Assembly: GCA_027053075.1 (NCBI GenBank)
Contig: JALUEE010000104.1
Span: 1-25,481, forward strand
Source of the DNA: a candidate division WOR-3 bacterium
GTDB taxonomy: Bacteria; Hydrothermota; Hydrothermia; B15-G9; WFZT01
Direction: 5' to 3'
DNA: 25,481 nucleotides
Shown here in pieces: positions 166 to 20,383 of this stretch. The notes under the pieces were generated by a model that was given only the letters and a program-made list of their open reading frames with translations, had not been told where the DNA came from and did not search any database. Each line of letters opens with the position of its first letter. The first letter of the stretch is position 1. The translations under genes and the position numbers were made by a program.

Positions 166-294
166 CCCCTTCCCAGCATAAATATCTGTGGGAAAAACAA
201 TTTAGGTGAGGAGCTACATATTGGATTTTTTTAAGATTTCAAGTGGAATGCCCCCCTCCCTGAAGCCCGCCCCCGCGCACAGCGCGGGGGCGGG
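166..294 (-). repeat. REP-like mosaic (hairpin unit + conserved linker + degenerate unit)
   Basis: Perfect 13-bp stem CCCGCCCCCGCGC-aca-GCGCGGGGGCGGG (266-294) with C-rich tail at 251-260. The reverse complement of 220-250 matches the linkers at 14276-14309 and 20240-20270. A degenerate unit ATGTAGCTCCTCACC... lies at 166-219 (-). Confidence 0.8.
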
Positions 295-431
295 AAATGC
301 TTTTCGTCATTTCTGGGCACAAGTTTCTTTTATGAGGGAAAAGTATTTTGTGTTTTCTGAGCACACAATTTGTGCTTCTTGGGATATGGGCACAGTTTTT
401 AGATTCAATCTATAAGCCCCACATCAAAAAT

Positions 432-487
432 CTTCCTCTCCCCGCATAAATTCTTTGCGGGGAGAGGATTGAGGTGAGGGGTTACAT
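432..487 (-). repeat. REP-like palindromic unit
   Basis: Minus strand reads ATGTAACCCCTCACCTCAATCCTCTCCCCGCAAAGAATTTATGCGGGGAGAGGAAG, with a 13-bp stem 434-446/456-468; near-identical to 14060-14114. Confidence 0.9.
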
Positions 488-591
488 TTAAAATTTCCTC
501 GAAGGTCAATTCACTAATCTTTTTCTCCCGCGAAGTCATAGAGCATTTACTCCAGTGGAATTTTTCATTTTATAGGCTTAAAATTTGTGGC

Positions 592-869: not shown

Positions 870-2297
870 ATGCAGATTAGAGAGATTCATGAGAAATACA
901 AAGCCCGAGAACTCACGATAAGTGATGTTCTGGAACAGGTGTTTGATACAATAAAAAGCAAGGAAAACGAAATTAATGCATACATCAGCCTCTACGAGGA
1001 TGAAGCAAGAGAGAGGGCAGTTGAGCTCGAGAAAAATCTAAGTGATGATATTTCCCCACTTTACGGCATTCCAGTTGCGGTCAAGGACAATATCTCAACA
1101 AAGGATATGGACACAACATGTGGCTCGCGTATTCTTTTAGGTTACAGGCCACCCTATAATGCCACTGTGGTGGACAGAATCTTAAATCAGGGGGCAATAA
1201 TCATCGGAAAAACCAATATGGATGAATTTGCCATGGGCTCCTCAGGTGAGCACTCGTATTTTGGTCCCACACGAAACCCTCACAATACCGAATATGTGCC
1301 AGGTGGCTCGTCCAGTGGCTCATCAGCGGCAGTTGCAGCGGGTGAAGCAGTGGCTGCCCTCGGGTCAGATACCGGTGGTTCCATTAGACAGCCGGCTTCC
1401 TTCTGCGGTGTGGTGGGACTTAAACCCACTTACGGCAGGGTTTCAAGATATGGACTCGTTGCCTTTGGCTCCTCACTCGACCAAATAGGTCCAATTACAA
1501 ACTCCGTCTATGACTCTGCCATTCTTTTCACAGCAATCGCGGGATTTGATCCCATGGATTCGACCTCGGTCGATATGCCTCTCCCTGATATTAATGAAAT
1601 ATTTGAAAATTACGACAAAAACCGCTTCACCATCGGAATCCCGGACGAATACTTTGTCGAGGGAGTGAATGAAGATGTGAAATCAGGAGTACTCGAGGTT
1701 GCGAAAAGATTCGAGGAGGCAGGATTTAAGCTCAAAAGAATTAGCCTGAAACACACTGAATACGCAATTTCTGTTTATTACATTATTGCAACATCTGAAG
1801 CAAGCTCCAACCTTGCCCGTTACGATGGTGTTCGCTACGGTTTCAGGGCAAAGGGTTATGAGACCCTTGATGAGATGTACAAAAAGACCCGAACCGAGGG
1901 GTTTGGTGAGGAGGTAAAGCGTCGAATTCTTCTTGGAACTTTTGCCCTTTCTGCAGGCTATTACGATGCCTATTATCTCAATGCACAGCGAGCAAGAAGG
2001 TTGATAAAAGAGGACTTCGATACGGCATTTAAAGATGTGGACCTCATCCTTACCCCTGTCTCCCCTACCCCACCTTTCAAAATTGGAGAAAAGATTGAAG
2101 ACCCGGTGTCCCTTTACCTCTCGGATATCTTCACGGTAACAGCCAGTCTTGCCGGTCTGCCTGCAATTTCAATTCCATGTTGCCGCTCAAAAAATGGCCT
2201 ACCCATAGGATTTCAGCTGATAGGACGTCCGTTTGACGAAAAAACAATCTTTCAGGCCGGCAGGTTTTACGAGGAATTTCTGAAAGATGAAGGGTAA
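870..2297 (+). CDS. gatA: Asp-tRNA(Asn)/Glu-tRNA(Gln) amidotransferase subunit A
   Basis: Amidase signature PGGSSSGS...GSDTGGSIRQPA, KDN motif, and GatA-specific SNLARYDGVRYG and GFGEEVKRRILLGTFALSAGYYDAYY. ATG at 870 preferred over GTG at 861. Confidence 0.95.
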   Translation: MQIREIHEKYKARELTISDVLEQVFDTIKSKENEINAYISLYEDEARERAVELEKNLSDDISPLYGIPVAVKDNISTKDMDTTCGSRILLGYRPPYNATVVDRILNQGAIIIGKTNMDEFAMGSSGEHSYFGPTRNPHNTEYVPGGSSSGSSAAVAAGEAVAALGSDTGGSIRQPASFCGVVGLKPTYGRVSRYGLVAFGSSLDQIGPITNSVYDSAILFTAIAGFDPMDSTSVDMPLPDINEIFENYDKNRFTIGIPDEYFVEGVNEDVKSGVLEVAKRFEEAGFKLKRISLKHTEYAISVYYIIATSEASSNLARYDGVRYGFRAKGYETLDEMYKKTRTEGFGEEVKRRILLGTFALSAGYYDAYYLNAQRARRLIKEDFDTAFKDVDLILTPVSPTPPFKIGEKIEDPVSLYLSDIFTVTASLAGLPAISIPCCRSKNGLPIGFQLIGRPFDEKTIFQAGRFYEEFLKDEG

Positions 2298-3141: not shown

Positions 3142-4526
3142 CGCTTTTCCTCGCAGTATTATCATTCATACTCACACCCATCAGCAATCCTTCAGACTGG
3201 AGATTTCCCTCGCTTACATACAGATATATGGACCGACAGGCAACTCTAAAGGGACAAAGTTTATTTACGTTTTACCCGATCGAAGAGACGGCCCGGGATT
3301 TTAGTAGGGGTTTAACCATCCAGAGCTATTTTGACAATAGTCTGCGGGCTGAAGGGAGTTCGAAGTATTTAAACTACTTTGAGCTTGGATTTGATGGAAA
3401 GTTTCAAATCAACCGATTCTGGTCCATCGAGGATGAGGTCGTATTTTTCAATAAAAAGTCTCGTGATTTTACGTTGCCGTATTACGATGCCCTGAATGAC
3501 TATCGCAGGAAACTCTACATTCTTAAGGGAGAAGCGGCCATCGGGATGGCAAGTTTCTTTGACCTTAGGATGGAAAAGGCCTATTGCGAATTCAGGATTA
3601 AAGACCTTATCCTTCGTATGGGTAGGTTTAACATAAGGATGGGCCCTGGATATTCGGCCAATTTCCTCTTTTCCGGGATCAACCAGCCACTTGATTTTTT
3701 GTACTACTTTCAGGGGGATTACAGGGAAAAACTTAAATTCGTGTTTTTCAATGCCGGGATGCCGGATACAGTTGAAGCCAAACGTGTGGCATATCAGAGG
3801 GTGGAAATAAATCCCTTTAAAAGGGTGTCCTTTGGCTTCTCGGATGCAGTGATTTACACCCGGAAAAACCTCTTCAAGTACATAAATCCGGTGGATTTTT
3901 ACTACCTGATCCAGAGGCACAGTAAGGACAACGATGATAATCTATTAGCCGAGGGGAATGTAACTGTCTATTTCCCAGCAAGGAGCAAGATATATTTCAT
4001 TTTCCTTGACGACGACTGGATTATAACTCCCGGTGACAACCAGGCTTCACTCTATGGATATATGCTGGGATTTTACACGGTCAATCCATTGAGGCTAAAA
4101 AAGATGGACTTCAGGTTTGAGTACAGTGAGGTTTCACCCTGGACCTATGCCCATTTTTCCCACACAAATACCTGGGCAATTAATTTCACACCTCTTGGGC
4201 ACTGGGCCGGCAATGATTTCAGGCATGTTCTCATGGAATTGGGATACTGGAGAACTCCGCGGGAGCTCATTACACTGGACATTGAATATCTTGAGCATGG
4301 AATGGGGAACCTACGAATCCCCTGGGAAGAATCTTCTTTGCCAGGAAACCTAAACTGGCCCTTGCCCCCCGTGGAGAAATCTTTATCTGCTTACGTTATG
4401 TATGAAAGGGAGAGCGATTTACTGACCTTATACTCAAAACTTGGCCTTGTGTATGATGAAGATCATTTCACCCCCATTCTATCAATTTTTGCAAAGGTCA
4501 ATATACCTTTGACCGTAAAGTTTTAG
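3138..4526 (+). CDS. outer-membrane beta-barrel protein, capsule assembly Wzi-like
   Basis: N-terminal hydrophobic signal, aromatic-rich amphipathic strands, GR..RMGPG and PLGHWAGND motifs resembling the Wzi family, C-terminal Phe. ATGA overlap with the nfo stop. Confidence 0.6.
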   Translation: MTLFLAVLSFILTPISNPSDWRFPSLTYRYMDRQATLKGQSLFTFYPIEETARDFSRGLTIQSYFDNSLRAEGSSKYLNYFELGFDGKFQINRFWSIEDEVVFFNKKSRDFTLPYYDALNDYRRKLYILKGEAAIGMASFFDLRMEKAYCEFRIKDLILRMGRFNIRMGPGYSANFLFSGINQPLDFLYYFQGDYREKLKFVFFNAGMPDTVEAKRVAYQRVEINPFKRVSFGFSDAVIYTRKNLFKYINPVDFYYLIQRHSKDNDDNLLAEGNVTVYFPARSKIYFIFLDDDWIITPGDNQASLYGYMLGFYTVNPLRLKKMDFRFEYSEVSPWTYAHFSHTNTWAINFTPLGHWAGNDFRHVLMELGYWRTPRELITLDIEYLEHGMGNLRIPWEESSLPGNLNWPLPPVEKSLSAYVMYERESDLLTLYSKLGLVYDEDHFTPILSIFAKVNIPLTVKF

Positions 4527-4690
4527 TGATCCTCGGGGAAAATATGTCCACAGAAATTATTGGCTACCACTATTGCTGGATACAGACCTCTGTATTTGTC
4601 TCCAAATTGCTTAAATTCCATGACCCACTGGTTTTCCGGGTGAATTCATTTCTTTCAAAGGCTTCGTGCGTGTTCAGCTGCTAAGAGACT

Positions 4691-4724
4691 TCTCTCTCCT
4701 CCGCACTTTTCGTGAGGGAGGGAA
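4691..4724. repeat. degenerate REP-like hairpin between convergent genes
   Basis: TCTCTCTCCTCCGCAC-tttt-CGTGAGGGAGGGAA followed by GAATTCAGG, similar to the unit at 20196-20233; imperfect stem. Confidence 0.45.
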
Positions 4725-4762
4725 GAATTCAGGAGCCATACCACTTTTAAATTTTTATCAAT

Positions 4763-5161
4763 TCATGAGAATGTTTCAATAAGCCACTCTTTGATTTCGT
4801 CTCTTACCTCGCGAAATTTCTGTAGTGCCTCGTCTCCTTCATACTGTGATGGGTCTTCGAATCCTTTGTGAAGGTATTTTCTGGCCCCTGGAAAGAATGG
4901 ACAGCTTTCTTTTGCCTGATCACAGACAGTTACAACATAATCAAATTTCCAACCCCTGAATTCTTCGACACTTTTAGAACGGTGGTGAGAGATATCTATG
5001 CCTATTTCTGCCATGACTTTAATAGCTAAAGGATTTACCCTTGTAGCAACAGTACCGGCAGAATAGCTTTCAAACTTATCACCAAATAGGGCTTTCATCA
5101 GCCCCTCAGCCATCTGTGACCTCGCAGAATTATGCGTGCAGATAAAAAGAATTTTCTGCAT
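4763..5161 (-). CDS. arsC: thioredoxin-coupled arsenate reductase (LMW-PTP fold)
   Basis: P-loop CTHNSARSQMAE, resolving cysteines in VTVCDQAKESCPFFPG, and FEDP motif. Confidence 0.88.
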   Translation of the reverse strand: MQKILFICTHNSARSQMAEGLMKALFGDKFESYSAGTVATRVNPLAIKVMAEIGIDISHHRSKSVEEFRGWKFDYVVTVCDQAKESCPFFPGARKYLHKGFEDPSQYEGDEALQKFREVRDEIKEWLIETFS

Positions 5162-5164
5162 TCC

Positions 5165-5563
5165 TTACTCTTTCTTTGCCTGGCTATAAGATTTGTAAAA
5201 GTTGACTACCGGCAGTAAGATTCTGATAGGTGAATTATAAGTTAGCATAAATACAGCACCTCTCAAAGTCATGTACACAGAGGGAATTATGTTCCCATAA
5301 ATATACTTTTCTTTTGTAGCCTTACTCATTTTTGTGTTGAATTCAAAAATTGCATAACCCCTGGCCTCAAAGAAAATGTTTTCTTCTTGTTCCACAGTCA
5401 GAGTGTAACCAATTTTGTATTGCTCTACATTTTTGCGCTTTCTTACTTTGAATGAGAAATCGACATCTCCCGGCAGGATAGATACGTTTTTCTTTTTGAA
5501 TGAATAACTAACTTCCTCAATTTCAAATTTTAGGATATTTATATCTGCACCATACAGTTTCAT
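5165..5563 (-). CDS. SecB-like chaperone of a toxin-antitoxin-chaperone (TAC) module
   Basis: 132 aa with beta-rich N-half. C-terminal NIIPSVYMTLRGAVFMLTYNSPIRILLPVVNF matches the SecB pattern N...Y..LR.....T......L.LP..NF. Third gene after the toxin and antitoxin. Confidence 0.8.
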   Translation of the reverse strand: MKLYGADINILKFEIEEVSYSFKKKNVSILPGDVDFSFKVRKRKNVEQYKIGYTLTVEQEENIFFEARGYAIFEFNTKMSKATKEKYIYGNIIPSVYMTLRGAVFMLTYNSPIRILLPVVNFYKSYSQAKKE

Positions 5564-5575
5564 GAAAAACTCCTT

Positions 5576-5974
5576 TTACGCAGCTCGTTGGAAATCATTT
5601 TCGTCGAATTTATATTTAGGAAAGTCGATTACCTCTTGCCATGAACGATTGGATGTGGATTCTTCAGTTTTTCTAAAAGACATTTGTTCAATAGGTTGCA
5701 TTTTTATTTCTACATTTAGACCAAGAGCAAGTGCGAGTTTTAATAAGGTTTTTAATGAAATATTTTCGTTGCCTTTCAGAATTTTTGAGATATAGGCATC
5801 AGACACACCTAATCTTTTCGCTAACTCTCTCTGAGAGATTCCTTTTTGCTTCATTCTCTCATAAATTGTCTCGGTTAAATCGTAAAGTAGTTCTTCGAGC
5901 TTAAACCAGAAACTATTTTCATTTTCCCTGATATAGTTTCTAATTCTCTCTTCTAATGTCTTCTTTTGAGCCAT
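5576..5974 (-). CDS. HigA-like Xre/Cro HTH antitoxin with C-terminal ChAD-like extension
   Basis: HTH MKQKGISQRELAKRLGVSDAYISKILKGNENISLKTLLKLALALG, followed by a tail of about 40 aa ending WQEVIDFPKYKFDENDFQRAA. Starts 1 nt after the toxin stop. Confidence 0.85.
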   Translation of the reverse strand: MAQKKTLEERIRNYIRENENSFWFKLEELLYDLTETIYERMKQKGISQRELAKRLGVSDAYISKILKGNENISLKTLLKLALALGLNVEIKMQPIEQMSFRKTEESTSNRSWQEVIDFPKYKFDENDFQRAA

Positions 5975-5975
5975 A

Positions 5976-6362
5976 CTAATCCTCCTTTTTTAAAAATTTT
6001 TCAAGTATTTCCTGTGCATTTTTATACACTATTTTCTTAACATTTCCTTTTCTTACACCATTGCTCAAATAGGCTATATTTTTTAGAAAATCAGGGGAAA
6101 GGAATATTCTTATCTGGGGTTTGGTGTGAATTCTGAACTCCCACAAATTGTGAGATGAGAGTTTTTTGAATTTTTTCGGGTTTTGGGGAAATCCATTATC
6201 TGCAACTTTTTTAATAAATGCTATCACTCTCTGTCTCTCGTGTTTACCAAGGGAGTTTAAAAACTCCTCAATATAGATTCGCTCTCTTCCGCCTGGTGAT
6301 ATCTTTTTAATAGCCATGATAGTCAGTTTAGCACCTTTATAAAAGATTTCTGCTTCATACAC
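5976..6362 (-). CDS. RelE/HigB (Gp49-like) type II toxin
   Basis: Basic 128-aa protein with EEFLNSL...FKKLSSHNLWEFRI...QIRIF...NGVRK, a RelE/ParE-fold pattern. Toxin-first order as in higBA. GTG start with GGAG 10 nt upstream. Confidence 0.8.
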   Translation of the reverse strand: MYEAEIFYKGAKLTIMAIKKISPGGRERIYIEEFLNSLGKHERQRVIAFIKKVADNGFPQNPKKFKKLSSHNLWEFRIHTKPQIRIFLSPDFLKNIAYLSNGVRKGNVKKIVYKNAQEILEKFLKKED

Positions 6363-6379
6363 TTTATTAAATCTCCATG

Positions 6380-6414
6380 GACATGAGTTTAACTTATAAG
6401 TTAAACCATGTCAA
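6380..6414 (-). promoter_or_regulatory. sigma70-type promoter of the TAC operon with overlapping palindromic operator
   Basis: TTGACA (6414-6409), 17 bp, TAAACT (6391-6386). Perfect 20-bp palindrome GTTTAACTTATAAGTTAAAC (6387-6406), extendable by GACATG/CATGTC arms. Confidence 0.85.
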
Positions 6415-6526
6415 GTTATCGAAAATTTTGGAAGATGTAATATTCTGCCAACAAAGAGGATAAAAATGGTTCAAGCCTTCTTAACTCAGCACTGATTTTT
6501 CCTCATTTTGCCTTAAGCTATTACAC

Positions 6527-6561
6527 ATTGAGCTCCGCAAGCGAAGCTTGCGGGGCTCAAT
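6527..6561. other. 16-bp stem hairpin with GC-GAA-GC loop (possible terminator/stabiliser or REP-like element)
   Basis: ATTGAGCTCCGCAAGC-GAA-GCTTGCGGGGCTCAAT with one T-G pair. Lies between the barrel gene 3' end and the TAC promoter; no clear U-tract. Confidence 0.6.
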
Positions 6562-6644
6562 AAATCCTATATTCCAAAATCTCAATAGTATCCAGGACTG
6601 TGCAACCCATTAAATTCAAGGCACAGCGAAAAATTCAACCTCCC

Positions 6645-7886
6645 TCAAAAACTATACTTTATCTCCACAAAGGCAAGTTTGCCCAGATGCTTGCCCATCT
6701 CGCTGAAGGGTGATGAGCCTTTTCCTCCACTTAAAAACAACCCCATCACAATGTTTACCGCATCAGCAGGAGAATAAATTATCTTCGGGATGGTGAAATA
6801 ATCATCATCGCTGTAATCATAGATGATGGTTTGGTCAGCACTCCAGTTGCCCGAAGGTGAATTATATCCAAGTGTTAAGGTTCCGTAATAGATTTTCTCA
6901 TGTGTCTGAAAGTTGAATTTCTCGGCAAACTTCAATAGCATCCCGGACATAGGGTCATCAAAGTCCGTGGAGTCCCTGAAATTTTTGATGTATTTGACTC
7001 CACCCTGGATGCCAAACTTTATTTTTTCGTCAAAGAATGTGCGACTGCCACCGGCAACTGCATATAAATATGAATTCTTCACCAGCGGGTCCTCACCATC
7101 CCTGTCCTTTGTATCAAAATATGCCCCTTCACCATGAATTTCCCAGCCACTCAACGTCGTCGAAAAATCGGCACCATACATCTTTATCAGGTTATATACA
7201 GGATAAATCACAACACCAAGGGGAGGTGGAGGTGCCACTACTTTTGATTCAAAATCAGGGTCTCTGTCGTAAATACTGAGGTAAGTTGTAGAAAATTCAA
7301 AGTTTGTCAGAAAACCGTGTAGTCTCAATCCATACTGTGTGTACTTTACGTCTTTTCCGGGCTTCACCGCTCTCGTGGGGTCAAATTCAATAACCACACC
7401 TGGTCCTTCAACTTGAAAAGCGGGCATCGGGTACTTATTGGGTGTAAAGGCCGGGAATAGATAGACAGAAAAGATAAAATTGGAAAAATTAACATCAAGA
7501 TTGACTTCTTCGACTCCCTTTTTAAATTCCTCCATATCAGAGTGAAGGGTTGTATAATCCCGCGGTGTGATCACGTCAGTGGGGTTGAGCCAGTCCGCTG
7601 TCCCAATACTCACAATCTTCTTACCAGCAGTCAAATCAAACATGCCCTTTTCTATTGAAAAGTAGCCTTCAATGGGCTCCATGGTAAGCGTGTCTTTTAT
7701 CCGATCATAGCCAAAGTTAAATGCTCCATACCCCTCTACGTTGCCGCTCTGGAAGGAAATCTTCAGCTGCATTGACGTTGCAAGTTTTTCGTAAGTTTTG
7801 ATAGTATCAATTCTTCCATATCCCTCAAATCTCAGATACCCCCCAAGGGGGAAGTTTGCTATGAGCAATAATGCTAAGAGATTCAT
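6645..7886 (-). CDS. putative outer-membrane beta-barrel (DUF1302-like porin)
   Basis: Signal peptide, DLTAGKKIVSIGTADWLNPTDVITP motif, C-terminal beta-signal VEIKYSF; last gene of the RND/LolA-like cluster. Confidence 0.65.
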   Translation of the reverse strand: MNLLALLLIANFPLGGYLRFEGYGRIDTIKTYEKLATSMQLKISFQSGNVEGYGAFNFGYDRIKDTLTMEPIEGYFSIEKGMFDLTAGKKIVSIGTADWLNPTDVITPRDYTTLHSDMEEFKKGVEEVNLDVNFSNFIFSVYLFPAFTPNKYPMPAFQVEGPGVVIEFDPTRAVKPGKDVKYTQYGLRLHGFLTNFEFSTTYLSIYDRDPDFESKVVAPPPPLGVVIYPVYNLIKMYGADFSTTLSGWEIHGEGAYFDTKDRDGEDPLVKNSYLYAVAGGSRTFFDEKIKFGIQGGVKYIKNFRDSTDFDDPMSGMLLKFAEKFNFQTHEKIYYGTLTLGYNSPSGNWSADQTIIYDYSDDDYFTIPKIIYSPADAVNIVMGLFLSGGKGSSPFSEMGKHLGKLAFVEIKYSF

Positions 7887-7911
7887 TTCGCTCCCTCCTT
7901 TCGCTCCCTCC

Positions 7912-8679
7912 TTATCTCAGCGCGCTCAAAGAAAACATCCTGTCAGGAATCCCAACGTTTACTTCGATCTTTTCGAATTTCATCACGGATTTCCTCTTGG
8001 TGCGGAGTTTGGTCGCTGTCATCTCCGTTTCAAACCAGATACCCTCAATTTTTTCCATTTTATTGGTCTCGATCCTTTTGAAAAGCTCACCGCTGCGATC
8101 ATAGCAGTCGGTTCTTACGACCATGTAGTTATCCTTCCTCACCCATTTGACCATTTTTGAGTAGCCGGACTTTTTAACAACTTTCTTATTTTTCGCAGTG
8201 GCCTCAATCACCCAGCAGGGGTTACCGTTATAGTCCTCTTCCCTGATAAGCTTGTAATTCCAGTCCTCGTATTCTCCACCTCCGATGTCGTAATTTGAGA
8301 AGTCAGAGCCCATAAATGGGCCTGCCTTGCCGGATGCTGCTATTCTTTTTGCCTTTCTTATTGCAGGAATGTAAATCCACATGTCGTCTTCGCGATTCTT
8401 GTGCTCGTGGAGCAGAAATTTGGTGCCCTTTATGTCCGCTGGCTCGAGGAAGAGAATTAGCATCTTCGTTTCATCAGTTTTGGGATTGGTTTTGGACCAG
8501 CTTTCCATCTTTCTGATCCTTCTCTGGCCGGAAGGACTGATGATTTCGAGGGTCATAAATGCGTGCATATCCTTCCATTTTGGTCTGTGATGCACTCTCC
8601 ACATAATGTCCGATGCCTTCTGGCCAAAAAGCATGGACGCAAACAAAATTCCTGGTATTACAAGGTTTTTAACCTTCAT
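7912..8679 (-). CDS. outer-membrane lipoprotein-sorting (LolA-like) periplasmic protein
   Basis: F.EPADIKGTKFL...DDMWIYIPAIRKAKRIA...FMGSDFSNYD signature. ATG at 8679 with GGAGGTGA RBS preferred over the TTG start at 8694. Confidence 0.85.
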   Translation of the reverse strand: MKVKNLVIPGILFASMLFGQKASDIMWRVHHRPKWKDMHAFMTLEIISPSGQRRIRKMESWSKTNPKTDETKMLILFLEPADIKGTKFLLHEHKNREDDMWIYIPAIRKAKRIAASGKAGPFMGSDFSNYDIGGGEYEDWNYKLIREEDYNGNPCWVIEATAKNKKVVKKSGYSKMVKWVRKDNYMVVRTDCYDRSGELFKRIETNKMEKIEGIWFETEMTATKLRTKRKSVMKFEKIEVNVGIPDRMFSLSALR

Positions 8680-10948
8680 GGCCTTCACCTCCAAAGCCTG
8701 GTTTCAAAATGTTTACAACTGCAGGCAAAATTACAAGTGCTCCTATGGCACTTAAAATCATTGTTATTGCCACAAGGAGACCAAGCCTCTTTATTCCTAT
8801 GAAAACCGATAATGTGAGCACAAGGAAACCAAGTGTGACCGAGAGTGCGTTGTAAATAATGGCCTTACCCACTGTGGCAGTAGAGCGCTCAATGGCAACT
8901 GAAGTGTCGCGGGTTTCCGGATAGAATATGCGATAACGGTTGATGTAGTGCACAGCATAATCAATACCTATCCCGATTGCAATGGATGCCACGATAGCAG
9001 TTGCATGGGTAAGAGAAATTCCGGCAAATCCCATGATTCCAAAGTTGAGGATAACAACCACAAAGAGCGGGATGATAGAGAGAATACCGGCCTTAAACGA
9101 CCTCAATACAATGGCTGTAATGATCAAAACAAGGATGAATGCAGAAATTACACTGGCTATCTGTCCCTTTACCACGAGGGCATCCATGAGGATGAAGAGC
9201 CGTGACAATCCGGTCACAGTGGCTTTTATCCCTGTGCCCTTTAATTTTTTCTCCTTGTATCTGTCAATTGCTGCGACAATCTTTTTGAGCTCCCCCGTGT
9301 CGGAAGTTTTGATAAAAATGGTCATGTTGAGCACGTTGTAATCAGGATTTACAAGGGCATCAAAGTCTGAGGGGTCACCTGACATGCTGTAGAGAAAGAT
9401 TTCCTGTGAAACGAGCTCGCGGGAGTCCGGAATTTTGTAATATTCAGGCTTGTCGGCAAACAACCCCTGATTCAGACGTTTAATCATGTCAGTTAGAGAC
9501 ATTGCCCCACCGACGTAGGGAAGTTTTTTAACATACTGCTCGAATTCGTCAACAATTCTGAGATTTTTCGGGTCTTTGAATGCTCCTTTTTCTTTTGCCT
9601 CAAAGATTATGTTTAGCGGTGTGGTGCCCACAAATTCACGGTTAATCCACTCATCTGCAATGCGGATAGGGCTGTCTTTAGGGAAATTTTTTATCTCGTT
9701 GGATTCGCTCTTGATTTTCGGAATGCCGATGGCCCCGACAACCATTAAAATTATTGAAATTGCGATGATGAGTTTATCCCTCTTGGTGGTGAATCTCCCG
9801 AGTTTTCTGAGGGTCTCGCTCTCAGGGCTTTGAGTGGGCTTGACTTTTGGTTTTTTCAAAATGGCAAGAAAGGCTGGAACCATGAAGATGGAGATGAAAA
9901 GCACGATAAATACACCGATTCCATTCATAAGACCGAAAGTTCGGATGGTTTTAATTTGCGAAGTTACAAGAGATATGAAGCCTGCCACCGTGGTCAATCC
10001 GGCAATGATAACGGCATTACCCCGCTTGATGAAAACGTTATAGACGGCCTCTTTTCGGTTGTATCCAGCAAGAATTTCCTCGTTGAATTGGTGGATGAGG
10101 TGTATTCCGTAGGCTGTTCCAATGGCAACAAGTAGCATGGGCAGAAGGGATGTCTCAAGGCTCAGGGGGATGCCGAGCAGGCCCTGCAGGCCCATTACCC
10201 ATGTCGATGCGAGTAAAACAGTGAGAACAGGCAGGAAAACCCCTCTGAGAGAGCGGAAGCTGAAGAATAGGACCACCATTGCGACAAGAATGGAGATCGG
10301 AAATAGCTTTCTGATATCTCCTGTCACATGCTCGGCTATCATTGCCTCCACAACAGGCTTACCCGAAATATAAAATTTTTCTGGCCCTTCATAGGGTTTG
10401 ACTATCTTTTGAATACTTTTATAGATTGCCAGAACCTGATCCTGTGAGAGGCTATCTTTGAGGATCACCAGAATAGCCGTTGAATGCCCACTCTTGCCGA
10501 TGAGCATTCCCTCATACATGACGTCGTGATCGACCAGTTGAGCCACTCTCCTGCAATCTTCCGGGGTAGAGGGTCGGTCTTCCATCAAAGGTATTACTTC
10601 AAATCCCTCTTCGGTTCCCTTGATTTTTGAAGCCGTGGCAAAGGATAGGACCTTTTTAACCCCTTTTAGAGACTCGAGGGTGTCGGAAAGGTCCCAGATT
10701 TTCTGGAGAGTCCGGAGGGAATAGATGCTGTCGGATTCGATTCCTATAAATATAACGTCCCTTGATGGAAAAAGCTCCTTCATCCTGTTGTAGGCCTGCA
10801 CCTCGGGATAGTGAGAGGGTAGTCCTGCTTCCATTCGGGTCTCTACCCTGATGTTTTTCATAAAATAGCCAAGAAACAGGGTTATAACGAGCAACCCCAG
10901 AAGGGTCCACCAGGGATGATTTGAAACAAATTTACCGAGTTTTTTCAT
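8669..10948 (-). CDS. MMPL/RND family inner-membrane transporter
   Basis: Duplicated RND topology with about 12 TM helices and two periplasmic loops; VAIGTAYGIH and IGIGIDYAVH motifs. Confidence 0.9.
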   Translation of the reverse strand: MKKLGKFVSNHPWWTLLGLLVITLFLGYFMKNIRVETRMEAGLPSHYPEVQAYNRMKELFPSRDVIFIGIESDSIYSLRTLQKIWDLSDTLESLKGVKKVLSFATASKIKGTEEGFEVIPLMEDRPSTPEDCRRVAQLVDHDVMYEGMLIGKSGHSTAILVILKDSLSQDQVLAIYKSIQKIVKPYEGPEKFYISGKPVVEAMIAEHVTGDIRKLFPISILVAMVVLFFSFRSLRGVFLPVLTVLLASTWVMGLQGLLGIPLSLETSLLPMLLVAIGTAYGIHLIHQFNEEILAGYNRKEAVYNVFIKRGNAVIIAGLTTVAGFISLVTSQIKTIRTFGLMNGIGVFIVLFISIFMVPAFLAILKKPKVKPTQSPESETLRKLGRFTTKRDKLIIAISIILMVVGAIGIPKIKSESNEIKNFPKDSPIRIADEWINREFVGTTPLNIIFEAKEKGAFKDPKNLRIVDEFEQYVKKLPYVGGAMSLTDMIKRLNQGLFADKPEYYKIPDSRELVSQEIFLYSMSGDPSDFDALVNPDYNVLNMTIFIKTSDTGELKKIVAAIDRYKEKKLKGTGIKATVTGLSRLFILMDALVVKGQIASVISAFILVLIITAIVLRSFKAGILSIIPLFVVVILNFGIMGFAGISLTHATAIVASIAIGIGIDYAVHYINRYRIFYPETRDTSVAIERSTATVGKAIIYNALSVTLGFLVLTLSVFIGIKRLGLLVAITMILSAIGALVILPAVVNILKPGFGGEGHEG

Positions 10949-10950
10949 GC

Positions 10951-11580
10951 TTATCCTCCACGTTTTATTCCGTATAGAAAAATTTCAATAGTGAGGTTTT
11001 TTAATTTTTCGAGGTCCTTGATGCCGGGCTTCATAATGAGCAATCCGTGCATAAGCCCGGCAAGTGAGAAAATTAAATCTTCTGTGTCAATGTCTTTGAA
11101 AGTGCCCTCCTCTATCCCTTTCTCGAAAATCTCCTGCAGGATTTCCATCTCCTGGTAGTGGGTTGATACGAATTTATCTCTATTTTCAGGTGAAATTTTG
11201 CCAAGAACATACCCGCTGTAGATGGAGTTCAAGAGTTTGAAAAATTTGATATTTTTCGCATAAAAGTCATACTCGGTTTCAATAAAGGAAATTAGCTGTT
11301 TTTCCGGTGTGTCATCAGGGTTTATGTTTTTCCTGAGCCTTTCGCTGAGCTTTGACATGCCGTCTCTAAGCACGGAGACGAAGATATCTTCCTTGGAATC
11401 GAAGTAGAAGTAGAGGAGTCCTTTTGAAAGTCGGGCAGCGTCTGCGATCTCATCTGTGGTGGTATTCTCGAATCCCTTCTCGGAGAAGAGCTCGAGAGCG
11501 GCCTTGATAATGGCCCTAATCCTTCTCTGTCTTTCCTTTTCTCTCCTTTTGCTTGACTTTGTAGTCAAATTTCGACTCAT
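10951..11580 (-). CDS. TetR/AcrR family transcriptional regulator
   Basis: AALELFSEKGFENTTTDEIADAARLSKGLLYFYFDSKEDIF HTH signature. Confidence 0.93.
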   Translation of the reverse strand: MSRNLTTKSSKRREKERQRRIRAIIKAALELFSEKGFENTTTDEIADAARLSKGLLYFYFDSKEDIFVSVLRDGMSKLSERLRKNINPDDTPEKQLISFIETEYDFYAKNIKFFKLLNSIYSGYVLGKISPENRDKFVSTHYQEMEILQEIFEKGIEEGTFKDIDTEDLIFSLAGLMHGLLIMKPGIKDLEKLKNLTIEIFLYGIKRGG

Positions 11581-14035: not shown

Positions 14036-14059
14036 CTACTGAAATCAATCTGATAAATA

Positions 14060-14114
14060 ATGTAGCCCCTCACCTTTATCCTCTCCCCGCAAGTATTTAT
14101 GCGCGGAGAGGAAG
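14060..14114 (+). repeat. REP-like palindromic unit (empty-site equivalent of the interrupted copy at 19718-19998)
   Basis: ATGTAGCCCCTCACCTTTATCCTCTCCCCGCAAGTATTTATGCGCGGAGAGGAAG. Confidence 0.9.
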
Positions 14115-14234
14115 GCATTGTTTAGAAGCATGTGACAAATTTCTGACTAGCTTCATCCAGGGTTGAATACTCTCAAAGGACACCTCACTTTCTTCACATG
14201 TAGGGATTGTACCTAAAAATGACGGAAAGTACTT

Positions 14235-14435
14235 CCCTCCCCCGCGCTTCGCGCGGGGGAGGGCAAGGGAGGGGGAATTCCGCTTGAAATCTTTAAAAAA
14301 TTAAGATGTGGCCCTCACCCCATCCCTCTCCCGCGAAGCGGGAGAGGAGGATTCAAAGATTTTTTGATTGGAAATTTATCAGATGTGGTCCCCACCTGAC
14401 CTCTCCACGCAAAGAATTTATGCTGGGAGAAGAAG
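14235..14435 (+). repeat. three-unit BIME-like REP mosaic
   Basis: 13-bp stem 14235-14263 (inverted unit), linker ATTCCGCTTGAAATCTTTAAAAAATTAAGATGT, unit 14306-14347 (10-bp stem, GAA loop), second linker, degenerate unit 14383-14435. Collinear with 20196-20383. Confidence 0.85.
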
Positions 14436-14542
14436 CAATTTTATTTGCTATTTTAAACTGCGACCGAGTCTTCTCTCTAAATCATCCTTTAGTTAAACTC
14501 CTCACTGATGTAACCAGCAGAAGAAGATCAAATCGTATTGAT

Positions 14543-15870: not shown

Positions 15871-16145
15871 TTGTATTTAATTGTGTAATATTCCAGCATA
15901 TTCATATTGCCTGAAAAACGATTCCAATGCGCGAGAAGTGAATGCGAGAAGCAAAAGACTTCAAGCCTTCTCAATCCCCATTCTCCCCTAACCCCTCCTT
16001 CCCCGAGGAAGGAGGGGAAATTTCGGGCTTTCTGATATACGACCCCGTTTTGCTTGTTTAAGCAGAAATAGGACCCCCTCCCTTCCCTTTGGGAAGGGAG
16101 GGTTGGGGTGGAATGGGTTGTCATCAACATTTCAAACTCATTCAT
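15867..16145 (-). other. 92-codon ORF built over a REP doublet, bridging rgy and recX (coding status uncertain)
   Basis: ATGA overlap with the rgy stop (16142-16145) and with the recX start (15867-15870). Peptide segments HSTPTLPSQREGRG and FPSFLGEGGVRGEW are translations of the repeats. Confidence 0.3.
15976..16117. repeat. inverted REP doublet (REPIN-like)
   Basis: Stems CCCCTCCTTCC-ccga-GGAAGGAGGGG (15992-16017) and CCCTCCCTTCCC-ttt-GGGAAGGGAGGG (16076-16102), each with a CCATTCnnCCCnAACCC tail in opposite orientation; 58-bp spacer. Confidence 0.85.
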
Positions 16146-19100
16146 CGTTTAGTGGAAAAAGTTCCTCTCGAGACTATATACACAACCTTCTTGAGGTCTC
16201 TTAAGATGCTCTGATAGTCTGCTGTGCCCTCCTCTACCCTGTCCATCTGCTCCTCAAGAAATCTCGTAAACTCCTCACTCGTGTATTCTGGATATCTCTC
16301 CGTTAAAAACCTATAAACCTTCCGGCCAAGGGCAGTTGGAAACAAAAACTTGCCTCGCTCAACCACGTATTTTCTGTCAAGTAGCGTCTGGACAATTTTT
16401 GCATAAGTTGAAGGACGTCCGATCCCCCGCTTTCTCATTTCTTCAATGAGGGTCCCCTGGGTGTAAGGCACCGTTGCCGGTACAAACTCTAACTTTTTGT
16501 CCTTTAAAATGAATTTCTCCGGAAGTTTTACCAATTTGATTGGCTGGAGAAGGTTAAAGCCATCTTCAATGATTTCAGTGGCAACCTCCTCCGTATGCAA
16601 AATTTTGTCATCAAGTTTAAACGTGAGTTTTGCGAATTTAACCTTTGCCTCTTTCATCTGGGAAGCCATAAATCTTCGCCATATAAGACTGTAGAGACGA
16701 ACGGCATTCCATGGGTCATCGAGCTCCACCTTCCTTTCTCTTACCATAAATCTCAGCTCGTCTGGTGGAATTGGTCTCGTGGGTCTTATGCATTCGTGGG
16801 CACCCCCCTCGCCCCATTTCCTAAGTTTCAGGTACTCAGGGCCAAATTCTTCTTTTATAAATTCTGCAGCTACCCTGAATCCGGCATCGGAAACCCTTGT
16901 TGAGTCTGTTCGATGATAGGTAATGAGTCCCCTTTCAAAGAGTTCCTGCGCAAGAGACATAGTCTTCTCAGCGGAAAAGCCTAAAAAGTCAGACGCACTT
17001 CGGAGAAGCTCACCTGTGTTGAATGGAGGAGCTGGATAAACGCTTCGCACCTCGTCGGCTTCCTCTGTAACCACAATTTCATGGGCTCTTTCAAAAATCA
17101 TTCGTGCCCTGCTCTCGTCCTCAATCCGGAAAGACGTTTTAAAACCATCAAATTCAAGGGTGAGCAGCCCGACCTTCCGCTTTCTCTCATTCTCCCGTTT
17201 TATCACCCATCCGAGAACTGGGGTTTGAACCCTTCCTGCAGATAGAGACCTCAGCCCGAAAGTTTTTTGCAATTTCTGGGATAAAGAAAATCCCACCCAC
17301 CTGTCAGCTATTCTCCGCAAAATCTGCGCCTTAACAAGACTTTCGTTAACATCCCTCGGTGACTCGATAGCTTCCCTGAAGGCCCTCGGTGTTACCTCGT
17401 GGAATTCGCTTCGATGGATATTTTGATTGAACGGAAGAATATTCAGCAAAATATCCCAGGCAATCTTCTCACCCTCAGAATCAGGATCTGTGGCCACATA
17501 CACCTCATTCACTTCCATGGAAAGCCGTCTAAATGCCTCAATAATTTGCAGCTTGTCGAGATCAGGCTTTTTGCCCGAATGGCAGAGATTCTCTGTGGTC
17601 TGCTCTCCCGTCTCAGTACAGCGCTTTATCGTGGCATAGACAGGAACAAAAAATCCTTTGTTTTCTAAAACCCCATAAATCCCGCCTTTTTCCGCAAGAT
17701 CAAGGATATGACCGAGCGAGGCAGTTATGAGCATCACACGGTCCCCTAAATTAACCTCATAGGCAAGGGAATCGCCGATCCACCTCTTCTGTGGTCTGCC
17801 AAAAAATCCAGCGATTGTTCGGGCTTTGTTGGGTGATTCAACGATGACAAGCGTTGATCTTACAAGGTCTCGTCTCTCAGCCTTCACTTCGCCGCTTAAA
17901 ATTTTTCTTACCCTCTCCCTGTCGTTATCAATCTCCTTCAAAACCTTCTCAAGATCAATTTTTTCTAATTTCTCAAATTCAAACTCGTAGCTCAAAAATG
18001 TCCGGAGTCTCCTTTCGAGGCTCCTGAAGGCTTTTTTCATATAAACAAGTGAGACGGCAAGGCCTTTTGTGAGTCCACCGGCAAACAATCGCGATGTTCT
18101 GCCCGTTGCTTGGATGTATGAAGTCGCATCACCTATGGTGAAAACAATTTTGCCGTCTTTTTCAATTAAAGAGATTTCGTCCGACGAGCGGAATTTTTCT
18201 AAAACATCTGGAGAGCTAATTTTCTCCCGTATGAATTCAGCGATTTCGTTGAGTTTCTCGGCAACTTTTGGGTATTTCTCAAGCTGCTCTTCGCGGAGAT
18301 TGAAATATTTGTTAATAAATTCGGCATATTCCTCAATTTTCTCTCTCTCATCAGGCAAGGCCACGCGCAGGGGATAGACAAATCTCAAGAGATTTCGGGG
18401 CAGGATGGAATCAACGTTGGCAGGTATAAGCAATTTTGGAACTCCAAGGAAAATCGCGTATCTTATCCTCTCTGGCATATCTATTCCACGAACGAGGGGA
18501 TTTTGATGGTGGGAAAGGCCCACGAGAACTTCAGCCTCTCCGTTTCGGAATTTTTCAAAGGCATCTTTGTCATCGTACGCCAGGGCTTTCTTCCCAAGAA
18601 CCTCTTTCACCCTGTCAACCATCTCCCTGCCGAGGTCCATGGACACGTAAACGAGCCCTCCGCCGCCGAGAGTTTCAACTAAATCCGGGAGTTTTTGAAG
18701 GCCCTCTTCGAATGACTTCACTTCCATGTAGGTATCAACAACGTTTCTGATGGTAGCAGTGGATTTCTGAACGTCAAATCCAAGGAGATTTTGAAATAGA
18801 ATTACCCTTCGTGTACGGGGCTGAACAGTGGCAGAAGAGATAACGAGGACACCTTCGGGCTTCTTGAATTTCTTTTTGCCTCCAGCCATTGCGCGTTTGA
18901 TGTCTCGGTCTGTAAATCCCAGCAGTTTTACGATGTAATCAATATTTTTAGATGCCTTCAGTAGAGAGTCCACGTCATCGACAAAGATGAATTTGAACTT
19001 AAACGGAGAGACGAGATCAAAGTTTTTGTAAAGAAACATGTGCGTAGAAATCAGAATGTCGAAGTCACCGGACTTTATGCGTTCCTTGTCATCCTTTTTC

Positions 19101-19552
19101 CCTGTGTAAGCGACAATTCTTTTGTCTGTTATGCTTGATATACGCTCAAAAGCCTGTTTGACAAGGACTTTCGTGGGAACAATGATGTAAGTCTTTCCCT
19201 CTATAAACGCTGCCATTGCGAGGCCAAAAGTGGTTTTACCAACACCTGTTGGAGCGAGAATGGCAAAGGAGTTGCCAAGGATGACGCGTCTTGCCCAGGT
19301 TTCCTGCAATGCCCACGGGGCAAATCCAAATTTCTCTCTGAAAAACTCGCTGAATTTCTCTGATACTGATTTAACCCTGCAGAGGTCAGACAATCTTTTG
19401 AGTTTACCTGTTTTTTCGAGGGTTTCACAGAGAATGGTATTATCGACCGGCTCAGGCAGACAATTTGAGCACGGAAGGCCACTTTTCAGCCTTGTGTAGC
19501 TGATCGAACCGTAACAATTTGGGCATAAATTTTTAAAAATCGCGATATTCAT
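16142..19552 (-). CDS. rgy: reverse gyrase
   Basis: N-terminal Zn finger CPNC...CSNC; SF2 helicase-like APTGVGKTT, DDVD, QATGRTSR; TOPRIM VESPNKA and TDPDSEGE; SAGRVQTP; catalytic ITYHRTDS; GIGRPSTYA; 1136 aa. Confidence 0.97.
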   Translation of the reverse strand: MNIAIFKNLCPNCYGSISYTRLKSGLPCSNCLPEPVDNTILCETLEKTGKLKRLSDLCRVKSVSEKFSEFFREKFGFAPWALQETWARRVILGNSFAILAPTGVGKTTFGLAMAAFIEGKTYIIVPTKVLVKQAFERISSITDKRIVAYTGKKDDKERIKSGDFDILISTHMFLYKNFDLVSPFKFKFIFVDDVDSLLKASKNIDYIVKLLGFTDRDIKRAMAGGKKKFKKPEGVLVISSATVQPRTRRVILFQNLLGFDVQKSTATIRNVVDTYMEVKSFEEGLQKLPDLVETLGGGGLVYVSMDLGREMVDRVKEVLGKKALAYDDKDAFEKFRNGEAEVLVGLSHHQNPLVRGIDMPERIRYAIFLGVPKLLIPANVDSILPRNLLRFVYPLRVALPDEREKIEEYAEFINKYFNLREEQLEKYPKVAEKLNEIAEFIREKISSPDVLEKFRSSDEISLIEKDGKIVFTIGDATSYIQATGRTSRLFAGGLTKGLAVSLVYMKKAFRSLERRLRTFLSYEFEFEKLEKIDLEKVLKEIDNDRERVRKILSGEVKAERRDLVRSTLVIVESPNKARTIAGFFGRPQKRWIGDSLAYEVNLGDRVMLITASLGHILDLAEKGGIYGVLENKGFFVPVYATIKRCTETGEQTTENLCHSGKKPDLDKLQIIEAFRRLSMEVNEVYVATDPDSEGEKIAWDILLNILPFNQNIHRSEFHEVTPRAFREAIESPRDVNESLVKAQILRRIADRWVGFSLSQKLQKTFGLRSLSAGRVQTPVLGWVIKRENERKRKVGLLTLEFDGFKTSFRIEDESRARMIFERAHEIVVTEEADEVRSVYPAPPFNTGELLRSASDFLGFSAEKTMSLAQELFERGLITYHRTDSTRVSDAGFRVAAEFIKEEFGPEYLKLRKWGEGGAHECIRPTRPIPPDELRFMVRERKVELDDPWNAVRLYSLIWRRFMASQMKEAKVKFAKLTFKLDDKILHTEEVATEIIEDGFNLLQPIKLVKLPEKFILKDKKLEFVPATVPYTQGTLIEEMRKRGIGRPSTYAKIVQTLLDRKYVVERGKFLFPTALGRKVYRFLTERYPEYTSEEFTRFLEEQMDRVEEGTADYQSILRDLKKVVYIVSRGTFSTKR

Positions 19553-19587: not shown

Positions 19588-19717
19588 TGAGGATGTGAGG
19601 TTTTGATTGTTAGCTCAAAAATTATTGCTCCTCACAAACCTTGCACGTGTCGGTGGGACAACCACGAGCTTTGACGAGGGGGGAAGTCAAAGCGTCTGAA
19701 ATTTTTAAAAATACAAG

Positions 19718-19998
19718 ATGTAGCCCCTCACCTTTATCCCTGACGTCACCCACGAATTTCTGAATAATAACACCTGATCCCTTGCCACGTCTTCAAAAAG
19801 GTGTACTACGCTCAATATTTGAACATTCTTTTTATGCAGTACAAACGAATATGTCCTCCTGGCAAAATTACTGATTTTATGCGCAAAATCAAATTTCCCG
19901 CGCAGATTGCACTGTATAAATATACATGAAAAGCAAAAACATGGGTGATGTCAGACCTTTATCCTCTCCCCGCAAGAAATTTATGCGGGGAGAGGAAG
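19718..19998 (+). repeat. REP-like unit interrupted by a MITE
   Basis: ATGTAGCCCCTCACCTTTATCC (19718-19739) resumes as ACCTTTATCCTCTCCCCGCAAGAAATTTATGCGGGGAGAGGAAG (19955-19998). Confidence 0.9.
19740..19954. mobile_element. 215-bp non-autonomous miniature inverted-repeat element (MITE)
   Basis: Ends CTGACGTCACCCACG / CATGGGTGATGTCAG form a 13/15 inverted match. Flanked by perfect 10-bp direct repeat ACCTTTATCC (19730-19739, 19955-19964). No transposase ORF. Confidence 0.88.
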
Positions 19999-20195
19999 TT
20001 TTTGGAAGCAAGTCTCATTAATTTGTACTCTTTGATTCAGCCGATAGGCGCTTAAAAATAGATTTCTCTTCAAAGTATTAAGCTTCCATTACCTATCCAC
20101 TATAGCCATGGCTTCTACAATTGGAACAAGCTCGAAAGTATTCACCTTCCACTCGCAGGCTTTGCCTGTTGGGCAAAAGATATCCCAGGTAATTT

Positions 20196-20383
20196 CCCTT
20201 CCCCACGCTCCGCGTGGGAGAGGGAATTCAGGGTGGGGGCATACCGCTTAAAATCTAAAAATCAAGATGTAAGCCCTCACCCCGACCCTCTCCCGCAGAG
20301 CGGGAGAGGGAGTTTTACGGATTTTGACTGAAAATCTGCCAGATGTAGCCCCTCACCTCAATCCTCTTCCCGCATGTATTCAT
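20196..20383 (+). repeat. three-unit BIME-like REP mosaic (last unit truncated)
   Basis: Inverted unit 20196-20239, linker ATACCGCTTAAAATCTAAAAATCAAGATGT, unit 20267-20310 (11-bp stem), linker GATTTTGACTGAAAATCTGCCAGATGT, half unit 20343-20383. Confidence 0.85.

Follow-up and report, generated by a model that had tools for sequence, protein, structure and literature searches.

Toxin-antitoxin-chaperone (TAC) systems, in which a toxin-antitoxin pair is encoded together with a SecB-like chaperone, are described in PMC3581621 with HigA, MqsA and HicB antitoxins and with frequent horizontal transfer; the same 2013 report notes their enrichment in Thermotogae and records them also from Caldicellulosiruptor and Deinococcus-Thermus. 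In PMC4257090, linkage to toxin-antitoxin genes is given for 63% of the SecB genes from organisms other than the alpha-, beta- and gammaproteobacteria. In E. coli, HigBAC and CmdTAC detect tail and capsid proteins of phages (bioRxiv 10.1101/2024.02.24.581848; PMC11618068), and the former source presents TAC chaperones in general as modular phage sensors.

The locus considered here lies in a window of 25,481 nucleotides, the whole stretch of DNA that was analysed, from a candidate division WOR-3 bacterium; none of the 20 papers listed by a literature search joins WOR-3 with SecB or with toxin-antitoxin systems. ORF calls place three co-oriented, closely packed genes on the minus strand, in the order toxin, antitoxin, chaperone, which we read as a HigBAC-type, chaperone-dependent TAC operating by the mechanism set out below, with a probability of about 0.8. 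The initial annotation had proposed such a TAC module, and its proposal stands, as gene order, toxin fold and residues, antitoxin tail, SecB fold and operator all passed inspection. The features of the region, in window positions, are:

5976-6362, minus strand: toxin gene, 128 aa, GTG start
5576-5974, minus strand: antitoxin gene, 132 aa
5576-5698, minus strand: ChAD-like tail, antitoxin residues 93-132 (40 aa, 6 aromatics, Ala-Ala end)
5165-5563, minus strand: SecB-like chaperone gene, 132 aa
6386-6414, minus strand: predicted sigma-70 promoter, TTGACA-17-TAAACT, 10/12 consensus matches
6389-6404, no strand assigned: perfect 16-bp palindrome TTAACTTATAAGTTAA between -35 and -10, candidate operator
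6527-6561, no strand assigned: hairpin with a 16-bp stem upstream of the promoter, an inverted repeat with a single locus in the genome
4763-5161, minus strand: host gene of the ArsC/LMW-PTP family (PF01451; TIGR02691 below cut-off)
5162-6644, no strand assigned: variable interval of 1483 bp holding the cassette, from the DUF1302 gene to arsC

The genes are indeed as tight and AT-rich as first described, with a gap of 1 nt between toxin and antitoxin and of 12 nt between antitoxin and chaperone, and a GC content of 0.33-0.34 each. Over positions 5162-6640, GC is 34.1% compared to 43.9% for the genome, and of 3133 genome segments of the same size, 30 (the lowest 1%) are as poor in GC.

The M. 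tuberculosis TAC, HigB1-HigA1-SecB-TA (Rv1955-1957; 7AWK, 7NBU, 5MTW), has the same gene order. It also resembles the cassette in its HigB, which is of the Gp49 type and carries a long helix at the C-terminus (Z 12.7 between the toxin model and 7awk), in the SecB fold of its chaperone (Z 11.2), and in an HTH antitoxin that bears an aromatic tail of about 40 residues and an aliphatic end of the ClpX type, VA there and AA here. The two differ in sequence (11-12% identity), at the F93 position, which is Val here, and in the thermophilic nature of the present host; moreover, the M. tuberculosis TAC sits in a large island, whereas our cassette is a small stand-alone insertion. HigBAC of E. coli NT1F31 likewise unites a HigB, a HigA with an aromatic ChAD and a SecB-like HigC at a variable locus. 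However, its ChAD spans 96 residues with four spaced aromatics, ends in Leu-Pro and acts independently of ClpXP, while the tail found here has 40 residues, ends in Ala-Ala and is devoid of the 30-residue repeat spacing; and HigBAC is carried by a prophage and senses lambda gpV, whereas a Pfam scan of the 24 window ORFs revealed no prophage or defence-island genes. CmdTAC (PD-T4-9; PMC11618068) is alike in that the model of its chaperone, CmdC, matches ours and that its antitoxin has an AA end serving as a ClpXP signal, but CmdT acts on mRNA as an ADP-ribosyltransferase and CmdA lacks an HTH, in contrast to the predicted RelE fold of the present toxin. The closest toxin structure is that of S. 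pneumoniae HigBA (6AF3, 6AF4; Z 14.0), which has the same catalytic pattern and is listed as a toxin-antitoxin module. To our knowledge, it has neither a dedicated chaperone nor an addiction tail.

Every defining feature of a HigBAC-class TAC that can be tested is thus present. The cassette is an ordinary member of the group and cannot be called unusual, since thermophile TACs have already been reported, SecB genes linked to toxin-antitoxin pairs are known and the layout is common in the phylum. Through it the HigBAC group gains an intact, probably thermostable representative, and the general understanding of TACs stays as it was; given that TAC chaperones act as modular sensors, a thermophilic version may serve as a structural or engineering tool.

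Evidence for a hot habitat comes from elsewhere in the genome. A reverse gyrase is encoded at 16142-19552 (TIGR01054, 1325.7 bits), and the IVYWREL fraction of the host is 0.426, which by formula corresponds to about 65 °C. The best-matching sequencing run is a hydrothermal vent metagenome, which may be the source. When the locus was first announced as a TAC in a reverse-gyrase bearer, the gyrase itself was correctly recognized, but it lies outside the cassette and is unrelated to it; being 10 kb away, it was rejected as a part of the system and is regarded as host context. Parts of gatA (window 1203-2167) and of the reverse gyrase gene (16779-16981) each have one extra DNA match in the assembly.

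The toxin is a predicted ribosome-dependent mRNase of the HigB/RelE (Gp49) family. It matches Pfam Gp49 (PF05973) with 35.4 bits, above the cut-off of 23.9, and its predicted model (pLDDT 91.6) compares best with S. pneumoniae HigB (6af4; rmsd 2.4 over 108 aligned residues), RelE proteins other than this and the M. tuberculosis toxin reaching Z ≤9.9. A PDB sequence search with the toxin alone gave no match and a 6-row profile gave chance matches only, but a 10-row profile led to S. pneumoniae HigB 6af3 with an E-value of 5.2e-5. In a Foldseek search of the model nothing appeared at E ≤0.001; the top ranks were nonetheless all RelE/HigB. Aligned to 6af3, residues E75, R77, R85 and K105 of the toxin fall on E66, R68, R73 and K92 of HigB, the likely catalytic set according to PMC9098466. 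With the basic catalytic residues kept, the assignment of a RelE/HigB-like toxin made from the bare sequence was well founded. The sole departure from solved HigB toxins concerns the F90/F93 position, occupied here by Val103 and in the two orthologues by Glu.

Likewise, the second gene proved to be what had been surmised, an Xre-HTH antitoxin with an aromatic C-terminal tail. Its HTH_3 domain spans residues 37-88 (Pfam, E 7e-16), and the HigA model TIGR02607 is matched with an E-value of 2.3e-9, below the cut-off of that model. The tail contains F100, W112, F118, Y121, F123 and F128 and closes with RAA. While the orthologues in the relatives G003 and G005 are 52-55% identical overall, their tails diverge in sequence, with F100-R101 and the terminal Ala-Ala kept. 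Such divergence is expected, since ChAD tails share no significant similarity, as stated in PMC5105189. The terminal Ala-Ala is likely a ClpXP degron: in CmdA and in M. tuberculosis HigA1 a terminal AA or VA is the ClpXP signal (PMC11618068; bioRxiv 10.1101/2024.02.24.581848). The host has clpP and clpX, adjacent on one contig (C98) and both above model cut-off. Its tmRNA (G000:C37:12409-12772, minus strand) has one frame ending in YNYAMAA, a YAMAA tag that rests on manual frame reading, the ARAGORN tag call being a different frame, GEQPALW. Judged by its antitoxin terminus, the cassette is likely of the ClpXP-triggered TAC type.

The third protein had been suspected of being SecB-like and of escaping automated annotation, and both expectations were confirmed. 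Neither Pfam SecB (PF02556) nor any NCBIfam model matches it, so that annotation would indeed overlook the gene, and PDB sequence searches with the single sequence or a 15-row profile found nothing. The PADLOC model PD-T4-9_C, for the CmdC chaperone, is matched with an E-value of 1.4e-6, however, and an Atlas search returned SecB clusters (0.93). The Foldseek search that had been suggested as a check recovered the SecB fold, whose absence would have refuted the TAC proposal: with the AlphaFold model (pLDDT 84.6), all 19 matches at E ≤0.001 fell in ranks whose listed entries are SecB, among them the TAC chaperone-ChAD complex 5MTW, with an E-value of 1.1e-5 to 1fx3 and 1qyn. Structural comparison (VIA, second-look mode) gave a Z-score of 13.9 to E. 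coli SecB 1qyn (rmsd 2.5 over 122 aligned residues), compared to 11.2 for M. tuberculosis 5mtw and ≤6.0 for unrelated folds. The protein is therefore predicted, from its modelled fold, to be a divergent SecB-fold chaperone resembling HigC and SecB-TA. Its branch is poorly covered by the Pfam model, as a HMMER search over 1.84 billion representatives found 11 relatives, one of them carrying PF02556, and the model matches only 1 of 15 close homologues scanned. Being invisible to Pfam, chaperones of this kind imply that surveys based on PF02556 undercount TACs.

A promoter and operator of the cassette's own had also been postulated, and both are conserved in relatives. The consensus scan was dropped as stand-alone evidence because the number of sites is at chance level: the promoter is the best of 8 sites in the scan, with 6.0 +/- 2.5 expected from shuffles. 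Support comes instead from conservation, TTGAC and the spacing being kept in G003, G005, G229, G139 and G056. The palindrome, which extends imperfectly to 6380-6412 as a self inverted match, has a single match in the genome when up to 2 mismatches are allowed. In each of the six HigBA-SecB lineages inspected (window/L077, G003, G005, G229, G139 and G056) both it and the -35 box keep their position, which supports the view that it is an autorepression operator, likely bound by the antitoxin HTH. Farther upstream, the hairpin at 6527-6561, which a terminator scan did not call as a terminator, may insulate the cassette from the preceding operon. The latter comprises four genes, for TetR, MMPL/RND, LolA-like and DUF1302 proteins (window 6645-11580), directly upstream of the cassette. 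In other vent runs, the region upstream of the promoter (6420-6640) shows several small deletions and a skip of 75-82 nt; in the coding region the one change is a compensated +1/-1 pair (6063-6066).

The three genes behave as an accessory unit. Orthologues of the cassette were found in two of five congeners and in none of 35 other relatives, at three different chromosomal sites, and the toxin-antitoxin-chaperone order is kept in G003, G005 and all three metagenome loci (L077-L079). In the congener G004 (89% complete) the same DUF1302 and arsC genes, about 93% identical in DNA, flank a 453-bp repeat-rich spacer that takes the place of the 1483-bp interval. Full and empty alleles both exist in vent samples: the cassette is covered in 4/4 vent metagenome runs examined, and in run X10 a loose end at 5152 represents the G004-type empty allele. 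In run X1 one contig skips 5155-6637, and the cassette contig has a depth of 47.5 compared to 77-80 for the flanks, a ratio that is not to be equated with the share of cells. The pN/pS values relative to L077 (toxin 0.28, antitoxin 0.11, chaperone 0.17) indicate purifying selection on each of the genes. Among 13 sequencing runs listed, none with the locus is an RNA run, which speaks neither for nor against expression. Low GC combined with presence and absence among congeners and vent populations is typical of defence cassettes. A scan of viral contigs with the antitoxin alignment confirmed none of 103 candidates; since it detects close relatives only, it says little on viral carriage.

On the other side of the cassette, arsC starts 3 nt past the chaperone stop, with no terminator called between them, and judging from this arrangement it is probably co-transcribed with the cassette here. 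Because the linkage is not conserved, it was rejected as a fourth module gene: a 98% identical copy is present in G004 without a TAC, and no arsC lies downstream of the G003 TAC. A high-copy intergenic repeat with 74-130 genome matches per block occupies window positions 171-536, 14053-14457, 15967-16161, 19697-20023 and 20156-20383; it also fills the empty-site spacer of G004 and lies upstream of a second TAC described below. As a boundary of the cassette this repeat was rejected, there being no copy within 4400-6700.

In the mechanism we envisage, a single promoter would drive all three genes, with the antitoxin HTH repressing at the palindrome. By analogy with 5MTW and E. coli HigBAC, a tetramer of the chaperone would bind the 40-residue tail through its aromatics and hide the Ala-Ala end. 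A competing client, probably a viral structural protein, would draw the chaperone off, whereupon the antitoxin would be degraded by ClpXP, for which the host has the genes, or would aggregate; the freed HigB would then be expected from its fold and residues to cut mRNA in the ribosomal A site, bringing translation to a stop. Shutdown of the cell is therefore the likely outcome when the chaperone is drawn away. Counting against this explanation are the F90/F93 position, which is not kept, and the length of the tail, 40 residues compared to the 96 of the E. coli HigBAC ChAD, together with its missing repeat spacing; the lack of prophage and defence-island genes among the scanned ORFs and the differing ARAGORN frame of the tmRNA also weigh against it.

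What pulls this trigger in nature is less clear than the mechanism. By analogy with the E. coli systems we give a phage protein roughly even odds, and as the host is apparently uncultured, the question will be hard to test. The same chaperone-addicted machinery could instead respond to unfolded proteins of the host under heat, oxidative or arsenic stress, as in the stress-sentinel model published first for the M. tuberculosis TAC (PMC4257090). A thermophilic vent host and the lack of a visible prophage context among the window ORFs would suit such a sensor, and the close arsC gene would agree with a connection to arsenic or redox state; yet arsC is unlinked in G003 and stands alone in G004, and neither so patchy an occurrence among congeners nor variation within populations is what one would expect of a core stress sensor, all of which makes this trigger unlikely. 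A similarly low probability attaches to the idea that the cassette is a selfish, chaperone-dependent addiction element that persists through post-segregational killing and senses nothing on behalf of the host. It is AT-rich, patchy and mobile between sites, and most TACs bear signatures of horizontal transfer, according to PMC3581621. On the other hand, the Pfam scan of the window ORFs detected no gene for mobility either within the cassette or next to it, the empty allele persists along with the full one, and tested TACs of the same layout defend against phages, as reported in bioRxiv 10.1101/2024.02.24.581848. Both of these alternatives concern the trigger, not the mechanism.

Whether the chaperone belongs to the toxin-antitoxin pair at all can be judged from the distribution of SecB-like genes in the phylum. 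Our chaperone profile matches 17 of 272 genomes and PF02556 matches 34, their union being 37, so that 235 have no SecB-like match by either search, which speaks against a housekeeping SecB here; the SecB-like genes of the phylum are neither lineage-wide nor free of toxin-antitoxin linkage, as a housekeeping SecB would be. We examined 39 SecB-like loci (6 further PF02556 matches have no locus), two of which have no upstream ORF. In 32 of the remaining 37 an antitoxin lies immediately upstream of the SecB-like gene: 19 of these antitoxins are of the HTH type (one of them recognized solely by alignment), 9 are HicB and 4 are MqsA. At four other loci the upstream gene is an unnamed one that follows a HEPN-like gene, and the last locus is unassigned. 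The ORFs preceding SecB end in AA in 14 of 37 cases and in A in 26, whereas among the long ORFs of this genome the counts are 2 and 62 of 1551, an enrichment that is a description and not a test, since kin are not independent. A tree of 31 rows puts the window chaperone into a starred clade together with those of G003 and G005; stars also mark the groups of the MqsRA-linked, the HicAB-linked and three of the four HEPN-linked chaperones, but not the HigBA group.

An ordinary HigBA pair, with an antitoxin stable by itself and a SecB-fold passenger acting in general chaperoning or export, is thus very improbable: the fold cannot separate linked from solitary SecB (E. coli SecB even scores above the M. 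tuberculosis TAC chaperone) and TAC chaperones can replace housekeeping SecB (PMC5105189), but the three genes move together to different sites, the antitoxin bears a tail with a putative degron, the tree arranges the chaperones according to toxin class and most genomes of the phylum gave no SecB-like match by either search.

Beside the HigBAC-type cassette, this genome contains a second TAC layout, HicA-HicB-SecB (L001:1468-2691, G000:C85; PF07927, PF05534 and PF02556). Its HicB ends at 144 residues owing to a 1-nt deletion relative to the HicB of G004, which has 175 residues and a tail ending in IIPA; a 7-nt duplication lies just downstream of the deletion. If the deletion is real and not an assembly error, this HicAB pair would have lost its addiction tail yet kept its chaperone. 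It is tempting, though doubtful, to regard the Pfam-invisible SecB branch as a heat-stable receptor of vent-virus structural proteins, maintained under balancing selection in vent populations, and the two TACs together as a natural picture of addiction gained and lost. Were this true, two chaperones of the same thermophile, one of them left intact in the second TAC after the loss of the tail, might also engage in cross-talk.

The four HEPN-like loci (L024:1498-2746, L032:555-1917, L050:45-1181 and L052:676-1812) each consist of a HEPN-like gene, an unnamed gene of 110-159 codons whose product ends in AA or GA, and SecB. One of the four has a Pfam HEPN match, the others being alike by eye, and the TAC literature consulted contained no TAC layout with a HEPN toxin. 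A RefSeq-wide survey by Nakamoto and colleagues (Cell Reports, 2025) reportedly distinguishes eight TAC classes, among which this layout may be included. At L034:727-2639 (G254), SecB is located between two unannotated ORFs of about 240 residues with no match to a toxin-antitoxin family, the upstream one giving a weak match to PADLOC CARF_HEPN (E 0.002). Finally, two TAC loci of relatives (L024:1-1204 and L061:2-604) adjoin what appear, from motifs recognized by eye, to be type I restriction-modification genes, a neighbourhood consistent with placement in defence islands.
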